DNA of 64,000 nucleotides. It comes from an uncultured Pelagibacteraceae bacterium. GTDB lineage: Bacteria; Pseudomonadota; Alphaproteobacteria; Pelagibacterales; Pelagibacteraceae. Position 1 is the stretch's first letter. Every line of letters begins with the position of its first letter. The notes beneath the pieces are model-generated. The model was not told the DNA's origin. It did no database searches and worked only from the letters and a program-made list of their open reading frames with translations. Both the position numbers and the translations under genes were made by a program. The DNA is taken from the NCBI GenBank assembly GCA_902629695.1, contig CACORY010000001.1, forward strand, positions 28,566-92,565. The letters run 5' to 3'. Shown here piece by piece: positions 31,919 through 35,227 of the stretch.

Positions 31919-32003
31919 GGGCGAATGGCGGAACTGGTAGACGCGCACGACTCAAAATCGTGTTTCGCAAGAAGTGAGAGTTCGATTCTCTCTTCGCCCA
32001 CCA
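31919..32003 (+). tRNA. tRNA-Leu(CAA)
   Basis: GGGCGAA/TTCGCCC acceptor stem, CACGA-CTCAAAA-TCGTG anticodon arm, long variable arm, TTCGA T-loop, encoded CCA. Confidence 0.97.
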
Positions 32004-32008
32004 AAGTT

Positions 32009-33748
32009 ATGGAATTAAACAAAATTAACAGTTTAGTAGAACTTTTTTTTATAAAATATGAAGAAAAGTTTCCCAAAGGTGCAAAGGCTTATGAAGAGAC
32101 TTTTTTAGTTTCACTTAAAAATAAAGATTTACCAGATACAAATTCTGGGCCGTTTACATATTCGTGGGGAAACGTTGATACAAAAATAAAGATATTATCA
32201 AACTATTTGGGAAAAATTATTTCTAAAGGCGATAGATGTATTTTATTATCAGAAAATCGACCTGAATGGTTAATATCTGATATAGCAATAATGAATGCAG
32301 GCGGGGTTACTGTTCCACTTTTTACAACTTATTCTGAAAAAGATTATGAATATATAATCAATAATTGTGAACCCAAAGTATGTATTGTATCTAATTTTTC
32401 ACAATTTGAAAAAATTAAAAATGATATTAAAGAAAATACAATTGTAATTTCAATGGATAAATTTGATGGTGAAATAGAATTTTTAGAAAATATTTTTTCT
32501 AAAGCTGAATATAATATAAAGACTTCAACTGAAAGTATAAAATTTTATAATAATAATTTAAGAAGAAATGATTTAGCTTGTATAATTTACACGTCAGGAA
32601 CTACTGGAAATCCAAAGGGAGTAATGTTAAGCCATGGGGGCATTTTATCAAATTGTGAAGGTGCACAAGAAATTTTAGATACATTAGTTAAAAATAAAAA
32701 ACCAGTTTTTTTAACTTGGTTACCATTATCTCACTCGTATGAACATACTGTTCAATATGTACAAATATTACTAGGAGCAAAAATTTATTATGCTGAAAGT
32801 TTAGAAAAATTGCTACCCAATATGGCTTTGGCAAAACCTACTATTATGACTGCTGTCCCAAGATTTTACCAAAATTTATATAGTAAAATTTTCCTCAACT
32901 TTTCAAAACAAAAAGGTTTCAAAAAAAAATTGATAGAAAATACTATCTTAATAGGTACTAAAAATTTAAACAATCAAGAATTAAGTTTTAAGGAAAAAAT
33001 CATAGATTTTTTTTGTGAAATTTTGGTGAGAAAAAAAATCAAAAAACAGTTTGGTGGAGAGTTAAAAGCGTTTGTATCCGGTGGTGGAGCTTTAGACCAA
33101 AAAATAGGTGAATTTTTGAATTCTATAGGCTTACCAACTTTACAAGGATATGGCTTAACTGAGACTTCGCCTGTTGTAAGTTGTAATATCCCAGGAAAAA
33201 TTGAAATTGAGACAGTTGGCCCACCTTTTAAAACGAATAAAGTAAAAATCGCTGATGATGGAGAAATTCTGGTTAAGGGTGAAAACGTTATGCTTGGTTA
33301 TTGGAATATGAAAAAAGAAACTGATGATATTTTAAAAGATGGTTGGTTACATACAGGTGATATTGGTGAGATAACTAATGAAGGTAATTTAAAGATAACT
33401 GATAGAAAAAAAGAAATAATAGTTAACCTGGGTGGAGATAATATATCCCCATCTAAAATTGAAAATTTATTATGTTTAAATGAAAAAATTAAACAAAGTT
33501 TAGTTTATGGAGATAAAAAAACTTATTTAGTTGCATTAATTGTAACTGAAAGCGAAGAAAACAAAAAAGAAATTGAGTTTTATTTAGAAAATTTAAATAA
33601 AAGTTTATCTTTAATTGAAAAAGTTAAAAAATTTAAATTAATTAAAGAAGAATTTACAATTGAAAATGGGATGTTAACACCAACTTTAAAATTAAAAAGA
33701 AAAAAAATTTTAGAAAAATACAAAAAGGATTTGGAAAAACTTTATTAA
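32009..33748 (+). CDS. fadD: Long-chain fatty acid-CoA ligase (AMP-binding)
   Basis: IYTSGTTGNPKG, QGYGLTETSP, WLHTGDIG, DRKKE; start reassigned to ATG 32009 because the ORF-track N-terminus is tRNA sequence. Confidence 0.9.
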   Translation: MELNKINSLVELFFIKYEEKFPKGAKAYEETFLVSLKNKDLPDTNSGPFTYSWGNVDTKIKILSNYLGKIISKGDRCILLSENRPEWLISDIAIMNAGGVTVPLFTTYSEKDYEYIINNCEPKVCIVSNFSQFEKIKNDIKENTIVISMDKFDGEIEFLENIFSKAEYNIKTSTESIKFYNNNLRRNDLACIIYTSGTTGNPKGVMLSHGGILSNCEGAQEILDTLVKNKKPVFLTWLPLSHSYEHTVQYVQILLGAKIYYAESLEKLLPNMALAKPTIMTAVPRFYQNLYSKIFLNFSKQKGFKKKLIENTILIGTKNLNNQELSFKEKIIDFFCEILVRKKIKKQFGGELKAFVSGGGALDQKIGEFLNSIGLPTLQGYGLTETSPVVSCNIPGKIEIETVGPPFKTNKVKIADDGEILVKGENVMLGYWNMKKETDDILKDGWLHTGDIGEITNEGNLKITDRKKEIIVNLGGDNISPSKIENLLCLNEKIKQSLVYGDKKTYLVALIVTESEENKKEIEFYLENLNKSLSLIEKVKKFKLIKEEFTIENGMLTPTLKLKRKKILEKYKKDLEKLY

Positions 33749-33855
33749 ATTAATTGATTATTTAACGCATAAACACTATCTTTTTTAGTCATATCAACAA
33801 AATAATTTAATTTTTTTTTTTAGTTTTTGTAAAAAATTTTTTGTTAATTTAAGAA

Positions 33856-33884
33856 TTGACATAACGTGTATAAAAAAATAAAAA
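33856..33884 (+). promoter_or_regulatory. Putative sigma70 promoter for the basic micropeptide
   Basis: Perfect TTGACA at 33856, 17-nt spacer, TAAAAA; followed by a 5' hairpin (CGAATCAA-T-TTGATTCG) and a GGGAG SD. Confidence 0.6.
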
Positions 33885-33935
33885 TAACGTAATAGCGAAT
33901 CAATTTGATTCGTTTAACTTAAAAGGGAGCTAAAG

Positions 33936-34013
33936 ATGCCTAAGAGAAGAAAAAAAGCAAAGAAGGCTAAGAAAAAAGCTAAGAAAAAAGCTAAAAAAAG
34001 AAGAAGAAGATAA
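33936..34013 (+). CDS. 25-aa hyper-basic protamine/histone-H1-like micropeptide (absent from ORF track)
   Basis: MPKRRKKAKKAKKKAKKKAKKRRRR*; AAGGGAG SD 6 nt upstream; tandem TAATAA stops; own promoter and terminator. Confidence 0.75.
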   Translation: MPKRRKKAKKAKKKAKKKAKKRRRR

Positions 34014-34033
34014 TAACTTAGTATTCTTTAATT

Positions 34034-34076
34034 AAAACGCTTCTCATAACTTTATGTGTGAGAGGCGTTTTTTTTT
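34034..34076. terminator. Strong, probably bidirectional intrinsic terminator
   Basis: AAAACGCTTCTCATA...TGTGAGAGGCGTTTT stem with a 9-T tract on the + strand, between the convergent micropeptide and carD. Confidence 0.85.
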
Positions 34077-34944
34077 AATCTTCTATTGTTTCATCATTAT
34101 CAGAAATTTGATCTTCCTCAGGCACTTCAGTCGAAGCACTTTTTGCAATTGGTGTAACATTTTTAGATTGTTGAGCTTCCAAATTTCTTTTTAGTGCTTT
34201 ATCTAATTTTTTTTGAGTGTCTTCAATTGAGATGTTTAAAATTATTTGAAACTCTGACAGAATTCTTTCATAAGCTTTTTCAAACAGTTGTCTTTCACTG
34301 TATGATTGATCAACCATAAGATCATCGCCCTTATTTAGATCCCTTACTACTTCGGCTAATTCATAAATTTTCCCTGAAGATATTTTGGCTTCATATTCTT
34401 GTGCTCTTCTACTCCACATTGATCTTTTAATTTTTGGTTTACTTTTCAAAATTGAAATACATTTATTGACTTGATTAATTGTAGCTAAAGGCCTTAAATG
34501 TGTCTGTTTATTTACAGGAACCATGCCGTTAGCTTTATCTTTATCAAACTTAATGATATAGGTTTCAACATCAATCCCACCAATATTTATTTTTTTAAAT
34601 TCAGTAATCTGACCTACGCCGTGTTTTGGATAAACAACATAATCTTTTACTTTATACTCCTTTTTTTGGGTTTCTTGTTTTTTGACTTTTTTAATCTCTG
34701 GTTTAACTTCATTACTTTTTGGGATTCTTAAATTTTCATTTTTTACATCTTTAGATTTTTTAGGGTCAGATTTTGATAATTTTTTTATAATACCCTTTTT
34801 TTCTTTTTGAATACTTTTAATTTGATATTTTTTTTTTGAAGGCTTATTCGATTTTTTTACTTTTTTAGCAGCTTTTTTTTTAACTTTTTTAACTTTTTTT
34901 TTAAATGTTTTCTTTAAAATATTTTTCAAACTTATTTTTTTCAT
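34075..34944 (-). CDS. carD: CarD/CdnL family transcription regulator with Lys-rich N-terminal extension
   Basis: [39 protein letters not shown]; start at 34944 or 34959. Confidence 0.92.
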
Positions 34945-35227
34945 TCTTATATTTTTCATGATCCACTGGAGGATCTTTTTTTTTATTTATATTAGGCCAG
35001 ATTTCAGAATACTTTTTATTGACCTCTAACCACTTTTCGCTCCCAGGTTCAGTATCTGCAGTGATAGCATCAACGGGACACTCTGGTTCACAAACGCCAC
35101 AATCTATACACTCATCCGGTTTAATTACAAGCATATTTTTTCCTTCATAAAAACAATCTACTGGACAGACTTCAACACAATCCATTAATTTACATCTAAT
35201 GCATTTATCATTTACTATATATGTCAT
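34901..35227 (-). CDS. fdxA: Ferredoxin (FdxA type)
   Basis: [30 protein letters not shown]. Confidence 0.95.

Follow-up and report, generated by a model that had tools for sequence, protein, structure and literature searches.

Layout of the fadD-carD gap

We analysed a 64-kb stretch of DNA (the window) from an uncultured Pelagibacteraceae bacterium of the order Pelagibacterales (SAR11), in which a sequence-only reading had singled out a stand-alone transcription unit for a very small basic peptide. The gap between fadD and carD was found to hold an independent and strongly signalled gene for a 25-residue Lys/Arg/Ala peptide at window positions 33856-34076, referred to here as the mini-gene. 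The features of the locus, with the Shine-Dalgarno sequence abbreviated SD and the open reading frame ORF, are as follows.

33856-33861, plus strand: -35 hexamer TTGACA, invariant in 17/17 aligned same-genus loci
33879-33885, plus strand: -10 zone, either TAAAAA (33879-33884) with a 17-nt spacer or AAAAAT with an 18-nt spacer
33896-33912, plus strand: 5' palindrome or hairpin CGAATCA-ATT-TGATTCG, 9 bp when folded (33894-33914)
33923-33929, plus strand: SD AAGGGAG, with AGGGAGCTAAAGATG invariant in 18/18 loci
33925-33937, plus strand: GGGAGCTAAAGAT, 13 nt exactly complementary to the rhtB hairpin loop AUCUUUAGCUCCC and its predicted target
33936-34013 including the stop, plus strand: coding sequence of the 25-residue polycationic peptide, with its ATG at 33936
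34034-34076, plus strand: intrinsic terminator, stem 34038-34047 / 34058-34067, then T9 at 34068-34076
34075-34959, minus strand: carD, a convergent neighbour with a Lys-rich N-terminal extension, outside the unit and used as the conserved synteny anchor

The peptide encoded by 33936-34013 is MPKRRKKAKKAKKKAKKKAKKRRRR, with 13 K, 6 R, 4 A and 1 Pro and a net charge of about +19. Tandem stops TAA TAA follow at 34011-34016 (the second at 34014-34016), and the ORF is unique within the 964-kb assembly. The perfect TTGACA, the 5' hairpin, the AAGGGAG SD, the ATG at 33936, the composition and the double stop named in the sequence-only reading can all be read directly in the sequence. That reading had also described a strong SD as rare among the genes here, and the count agreed, with the 4-mer SD core in only 5/45 window ORFs of at least 150 residues and the 5-mer in only 1/45. 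Transcription is predicted to start near 33891. The block AAAAAAATAAAAAT in the -10 zone was kept across most of the genus, both in the locus alignment and in a pattern search.

The terminator had been called the strongest in the window, with its T-tract on the plus strand, and a fold scan returned the same ranking (-18.5 kcal/mol versus -11.1 kcal/mol for the next T-tract hairpin of the 64 kb). Its stem is 10 bp long and G+C-rich, and a terminator scan showed one site versus 0.2 expected in shuffled sequence. The carD stop codon (34075-34077) overlaps the T-tract. The terminator is nevertheless built for the mini-gene, because its two G-U pairs become C-A mismatches on the minus strand. In the locus alignment it was conserved, and the U-G to U-A exchanges seen there retain pairing only on the plus-strand RNA.

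Conservation and coding character

A DNA search of 40 relatives recovered 17 same-genus loci spanning the fadD-carD gap and one more reaching the ORF, and the mini-gene ORF was present in every one of these 18. The 17 aligned loci showed invariant palindrome core arms (CGAATC/GATTCG) around a variable loop. The spacer downstream of fadD was poorly conserved, while the -35 hexamer, the A-rich -10 zone, the palindrome arms, AGGGAGCTAAAGATG and the terminator were all conserved. Altogether 45 same-genus orthologues were read, and 42 made up the analysed set. All 45 keep the SD, the ATG, the frame and the stop, and use codons solely for K, R, A, T, S and P. The 42 analysed orthologues comprise 35 distinct coding sequences and 24 distinct peptides of ten lengths between 17 and 35 codons, or eleven lengths if one further 20-residue form is counted. 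Length changes of one or two bases, which would shift the frame, were absent from the 35 distinct sequences despite their slippage-prone runs of 6-10 A.

Codon choice was also biased. AAG makes up 27.5% of the Lys codons in the mini-gene orthologues, compared with 11.5% in the long ORFs of the window. The longest A-run averaged 7.3 in the observed sequences versus 10.0 (standard deviation 0.16) when the same peptides were re-coded with genomic codon usage, and 0/2000 simulations gave a value as low. The enrichment of AAG therefore keeps poly(A) runs short, which is consistent with poly(A) being selected against in the course of translation.

These results bear on the possibility that the ORF is a neutral A-rich repeat, or lies within a non-coding small RNA (sRNA), and is open by chance. 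Purine-rich DNA of this kind contains no stop codons, and of the two alternative frames one (+1) is open too while the other (+2) is closed. However, the SD and ATG are invariant, no frameshift was seen in 35 distinct sequences with A-runs, codon choice is biased and the gene is conserved across the order beside a poorly conserved spacer, so that we consider a chance ORF extremely improbable. The comparison thus supports the mini-gene as a dedicated, selected and protein-coding transcription unit, and its product is probably a translated polycation under selection. The sequence-only reading had argued for selection on such a unit and had proposed the fadD-carD gap of relatives as the place to look. 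Frame, SD, ATG, promoter and terminator were conserved in every orthologue read, and the same-genus relatives showed enriched AAG codons and no frameshifts.

Each of the 11 genera sampled within the order had an orthologue, with lengths of 17-99 residues overall, and the mini-gene was convergent with carD in every locus read. The pattern TTGACA-N30-38-CGAATC-N3-8-GATTC occurred once per genome in 227/301 genomes of the order, including 179/200 genomes of the genus and 46/60 of the sister family, while the reversed pattern, run as a control, matched twice. Five other genera of the same family showed a carD-adjacent orthologue of 23-50 residues without the exact promoter-palindrome pattern. They have TTGACA with ACGAATCA 33-35 nt later and form other hairpin stems, for example CACTTAAA/TTTAAGTG. 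The first palindrome copy, ACGAATCA, is thus kept in all 11 genera even where its stem partner differs, which indicates that the 5'-proximal hairpin and the ACGAATCA element are conserved separately.

The sister family showed the same promoter and palindrome, a longer leader, an ORF of 40-99 residues and its own terminator, convergent with carD-fdxA. The orthologue there starts MEELKVIFAKA, continues with AAPKKKK-type repeats and has an Arg/Lys end. Its leader contains a second small hairpin (CCC-AAAC-GGG) abutting the SD, and two successive terminator hairpins lie between the orthologue and carD (L022:1346-1420 and aligned loci). In 28 other alphaproteobacterial families, a tally that included one unpublished genome (G490) on which no conclusion here depends, no basic ORF was found within 700 bp after carD, although the gene could lie elsewhere there. 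The 25-residue peptide is thus the short end of a repeat-length-variable family resembling histone H1 tails and confined to the order as far as sampled.

The range of lengths also bears on whether the product is a mini-protein of the ribosome that fills a groove in the ribosomal RNA (rRNA) of SAR11, as eL41, bL37, bS22 and bTHX might suggest. The 25-residue size and the charge are similar, the SD and promoter are strong, any polycation will bind rRNA, and the peptide begins MAKRRKK, which we take to resemble the start of small basic ribosomal proteins. In contrast, a length of 17-99 residues that changes by repeat gain and loss, together with the lack of positional conservation, is unlike proteins held in a fixed rRNA pocket and makes a ribosomal role less likely. 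Ten or eleven lengths occur within one genus, the mini-gene lies outside any ribosomal operon, no NCBIfam or Pfam family was matched, and the sister-family orthologue resembles an H1 tail. We regard a ribosomal role as unlikely.

Database searches gave few leads. NCBIfam and Pfam returned no hit for the 25-residue peptide or for the 84/85-residue orthologues, although bias filters may suppress such sequences, and the profiles Hc1 (PF07432) and HC2 (PF07382) gave no Pfam match for either up to E = 10. Rfam showed no match in the mini-gene region and only transfer RNAs (tRNAs) in the whole window. An exact-sequence look-up of five orthologues in a collection of 15 billion proteins found none of them. 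A homologue search with the 85-residue form yielded just two fragments, since the low complexity of the sequence defeats such a search. The Atlas lists that form only as 'hypothetical protein', and none of the clusters closest to it has a name; in the closest one to which any Pfam family is assigned, HC2 appears on 23% of the members, and we treat this as no more than a lead. No description of the mini-gene was found in the literature searched.

RNA runs containing part of the stretch numbered 13, and positions 33884-34075 were covered by contigs from four marine RNA libraries (metatranscriptomes) of four studies. The sequence-only reading had pointed to RNA coverage as a check, and it was answered in part, with matching contigs from four studies' libraries whose strand and level the contigs do not give. 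These contigs show no more than the presence of matching sequence in the RNA libraries. Read depth was far higher over the unit than over carD and fadD, but it was rejected as a measure of expression because one figure is given per contig, the runs were chosen with the stretch and reads from relatives pile up on the conserved unit. Positions 33752-33839 had no cover and contigs ended at 33844, but these observations were likewise uninformative about the start site.

Three observations concern assemblies and neighbouring genes. Assemblies at L019, L020, L050, L052, L053 and L057 break inside or beside the Lys-codon repeat, so metagenome-assembled genomes will often lack the mini-gene or contain a truncated copy. 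The longest fadD ORF (31925-33748) starts within a tRNA gene (31919-32000; Rfam 58.5 bits), so that its first ~28 residues (MAELVDAHDSKSC...) are translated tRNA and the true start is probably the methionine of MELNK just after the tRNA. CarD has a Lys-rich N-terminal extension of ~95 residues and ends in an acidic tail, and 59 nt of its ORF are shared with the ferredoxin gene (34901-35227, minus strand). Two H1-like basic sequences thus face each other at the locus.

RNA partner and candidate methylation sites

The rhtB RNA motif of 'Ca. P. ubique' was published without an assigned function (Meyer et al., 2009, PMC2704228), with the consensus loop AUC-UUUAGCUCCC (Additional file 8 of that paper). 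The complement of this loop, GGGAGCUAAAGAU, is window 33925-33937, which is the stretch from the SD to the AUG of the mini-gene. The source genome has its own rhtB-type hairpin at G000:C7:3549-3602. It matches the published consensus in stem, bulge and loop, and folds with 13 nt in the open loop, AUCUUUAGCUCCC, as the exact complement of the SD-AUG stretch. Pairing extends over 14 nt, one mismatch and a further 6 nt in the source genome, and over 18 contiguous nt in MAK-type genomes. The hairpin occurred once per genome in 167/200 genomes of the genus and in 0/100 genomes outside it, and its antisense strand showed no conserved ORF. An 11-mer of the loop complementarity has three copies in the genome, one in the mini-gene, one in the intergenic rhtB hairpin and one at a coding site in a 409-residue ORF. 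The third copy lies outside the window on the coding strand of that ORF (L063:1500-1511, G000:C1:144927-144937), whose translation (MGAKDIKRQ) leads us to regard it as trpB. This copy probably arose by coincidence within coding sequence, although the hairpin RNA could have a second target there.

The two partners showed co-variation. All seven genomes with the loop CCAUUUUUAGC (C-to-U) have AAAAATG in place of AAAGATG in the mini-gene (G-to-A), the G is retained in more than 30 genomes whose loop has the C, and no discordant genome was found. A carD tree puts the seven genomes at two positions, each with its own support. Two events are likely but not certain, because the tree is built from one short gene and the group recombines. 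One genome (G134) showed a paired deletion in which one C was lost from the loop and one G from the SD, and the loops CUCUC and CUCCU still pair through G-U. A scan of RNA duplex energies also placed the mini-gene as the best target in the window, but was set aside as non-discriminating since pairs of U-tract and A-rich DNA score nearly equally. As a prediction from co-varying sequences, the pairing of the rhtB loop with the SD-AUG of the mini-gene is well supported. For the direction of control, the simplest reading is that the hairpin would occlude the SD and the AUG.

The hairpin has a conserved promoter-like element of its own, TAATGCA-N15-TGATATWAT, and a U-tract on its 3' side in some loci, including that of the source genome. 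It lies 5-15 nt upstream of the ATG of a RhtB/LysE-family gene in 12/16 loci. Among the other four, one has an rhtB-type start missed by the ORF scan, two precede other ORFs and one has no ORF within 60 nt. These surroundings would suit a view in which RNA is the main actor and the peptide matters little, with the mini-gene messenger RNA (mRNA) and the rhtB-leader hairpin forming a regulatory pair, either as a sponge or as a trans-acting leader peptide that senses the supply of Lys/Arg-tRNA. The 13-18 nt of co-varying complementarity, the hairpin with its own promoter-like element just before a LysE/RhtB-family exporter and the ORF of nearly all Lys/Arg codons are all in keeping with it. However, the gene, SD and ORF are conserved in 10 other genera in which the hairpin was not found, and this weakens an RNA-first role. 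Moreover, 3/16 hairpin loci have no rhtB-type ORF just downstream, and the selection against long A-runs points to a translated product. A link to Lys/Arg export was itself rejected, as the best NCBIfam match of the exporter is homoserine/homoserine lactone efflux (below the curated cut-off) and not LysE. We therefore think it quite unlikely that the RNA is the main actor.

A leader peptide or attenuator acting in cis was rejected, as no same-strand gene lies downstream and the strong terminator is followed by convergent carD. In a combined form, the mRNA would have two functions as a 'leader peptide' acting in trans. Clearance of the Lys/Arg ORF by ribosomes would set how far the SD-AUG is free to pair with the exporter hairpin, so that one mRNA-mRNA contact would couple the supply of basic amino acids, exporter expression and polycation synthesis. 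We hold this form to be very doubtful. A milder version would be a replication-timed (CcrM/GcrA) and RNA-gated 'bacterial protamine' circuit.

The timing in that version refers to the palindrome, which consists of two inverted copies of TGATTCG and therefore carries GANTC sites. TGATTCG is the consensus site of GcrA/CcrM in Caulobacter (Haakonsen, 2015, PMC4647560). Both copies lie at about +5 to +22 of the predicted start, where we looked for YGAKTCK within 40 bp. In the source genome and in three relatives we found a gene for GcrA, scoring above the Pfam cut-off, and one for an N6/N4 methylase of CcrM size. GANTC was depleted about two-fold (92 versus 182 expected in the window; 1.44 versus 2.66 per kb in coding DNA) and TGATTCG five-fold in the genome (18 versus 93 expected). 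Eight of the 18 TGATTCG sites lie outside long ORFs, in ~9% of the DNA, and two of these eight belong to the mini-gene, which also holds the only pair of GANTC sites within 20 nt in the window. This arrangement suggests that transcription of the mini-gene may be coupled to methylation or replication. The sequence-only reading had noted the 5' hairpin, but neither the two GcrA-type sites within it nor the pairing with the rhtB RNA.

Elsewhere in the genome, TGATTCG precedes the start codon by 1-11 nt in clpP, clpX, a DUF2721 gene and the gene of an acetyl-CoA synthetase (acs) divergent from proteorhodopsin (L156:122 and L156:818 of G000:C6; L155:501; L157:2013). Together these genes may form a small regulon of the GcrA/CcrM type in SAR11. 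Only seven pairs of closely spaced GANTC sites fall outside long ORFs, and one of them, at G000:C3:27530-27545, is just upstream of the CcrM-like methylase gene (C3:26776-27435). Its position corresponds to the 'babIM element' of Meyer 2009.

Proposed role and comparison with known systems

We favour, with a probability of about one half, a role of the peptide as a minimal polycation of H1-tail or protamine type that binds the nucleoid. Nucleoid binding is preferred because of the drift in repeat length, the H1-like orthologues of the sister family, the requirement for tight regulation and a possible link to replication. The composition and the variation in repeat number fit an H1-like character, with (A)KKK and AAPKKKK repeats in products of 17-99 residues. 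The likeness to H1 proposed from sequence alone gained from the orthology to AAPKKKK-repeat proteins of 40-99 residues, whereas matches to profiles of H1-like families did not appear.

The free peptide would be unstructured and would bind non-specifically to the phosphate backbone of nucleic acids, chiefly of the chromosome, where it would neutralise charge and compact the nucleoid of a very small cell. The rhtB hairpin RNA, by occluding the ribosome-binding site, would limit a peptide that would be harmful in excess. Through the two CcrM/GcrA-type sites just after the predicted start, transcription could be linked to the replication cycle, and the same palindrome could, as a 5' stem-loop in the mRNA, stabilise the transcript of the mini-gene.

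Several results weigh against a nucleoid polycation of this kind. Positional conservation is weak, as only 4/33 codon columns are invariant and K, R and A interchange freely, with 260 synonymous versus 392 non-synonymous codon differences in same-length pairs; as a test of selection, a count of the dN/dS type (non-synonymous over synonymous change) is uninformative for a low-complexity peptide. Such weak conservation points to selection on composition and charge, which would fit any polyanion target, rRNA included. A 12-nt repeat unit would preserve the frame without coding selection, yet length steps of single codons occur too. No search with profile hidden Markov models or sequences linked the peptide to known DNA-binding families. 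The contigs from RNA libraries are unstranded, may include DNA and carry no information on ends or level, and two of them reach upstream of the -35 hexamer, so that the start site stays a prediction. TGATTCG sites elsewhere in non-coding DNA lie ahead of a mixed gene set (clpP, clpX, acs and the DUF2721 gene). In one lineage (G087, G217 and G163) an uncompensated loop change leaves 12 nt of pairing. The sister family showed no anti-SD partner, only self-matches and noise with one mismatch, so the RNA layer of control would be specific to the genus.

SAR11 bacteria are among the most abundant organisms of the ocean, and their genome is among the most streamlined of free-living cells. It nonetheless spends ~220 bp on the mini-gene unit. 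Provided that the peptide is made, it would rank with the smallest known proteins of a chromatin-like or polyanion-binding kind, and a nucleoid role would bear on charge neutralisation and DNA packing in a cell in which DNA takes up much of the volume. The rhtB motif, an orphan since 2009, gains a testable function for which natural compensatory variants are at hand, and the palindrome points to control of the CcrM/GcrA type in SAR11.

Lys/Ala-rich repeat proteins are known from the C-terminal tails of eukaryotic H1, from protamines and from the bacterial KPAA/AAKK proteins (AlgP, BpH1 and the tail of mycobacterial HupB). The SAR11 peptides share with them low-complexity repeats of Lys, Arg and Ala (Pro), a terminal Arg cluster and polymorphism in repeat number. 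They differ in standing alone, in being only 17-35 residues long in the genus and in that homology is not demonstrable. The peptide resembles eL41, bL37, bS22 and bTHX in size and charge, but differs from them in its variable length and in lacking positional conservation, a family match and ribosomal context.

With the Caulobacter promoters of GcrA and CcrM (PMC4647560) the mini-gene shares two exact TGATTCG sites within ~25 bp of the predicted start, in a genome that encodes GcrA and a CcrM-sized methylase. Unlike those promoters, the bases of the SAR11 sites also form an RNA hairpin, and the start site is a predicted one. The stem, bulge and loop of the hairpin are those of the published rhtB motif (PMC2704228), and here the loop is identified as the anti-SD for the mini-gene.

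A close parallel in regulation is the chlamydial histone-like protein HctA (Hc1), whose translation start region is reported to be paired and repressed by the sRNA IhtA (PMC3469542, PMC4355289, PMC8343073). HctA/Hc2 with IhtA and the SAR11 system both combine a small, highly basic and Lys-rich protein, with a nucleoid role that is putative here, and a start region that pairs with a trans-encoded RNA. What defines an IhtA-HctA-type pair, a trans-encoded complementary RNA with co-variation, was found here as 13-18 nt of complementarity, 7/7 changed pairs at two tree positions and one paired deletion. The SAR11 peptide is 5-8 times shorter than HctA/Hc2, has no folded domain and shows no relationship to them by sequence or profile. 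The predicted partner RNA consists of one hairpin next to the gene of an exporter. The kind of protein is already known, as bacteria have H1-like basic proteins of which some are under sRNA control, and the SAR11 mini-gene is new in its extremely minimal form, in its link to the rhtB motif and in its sites of GcrA type.
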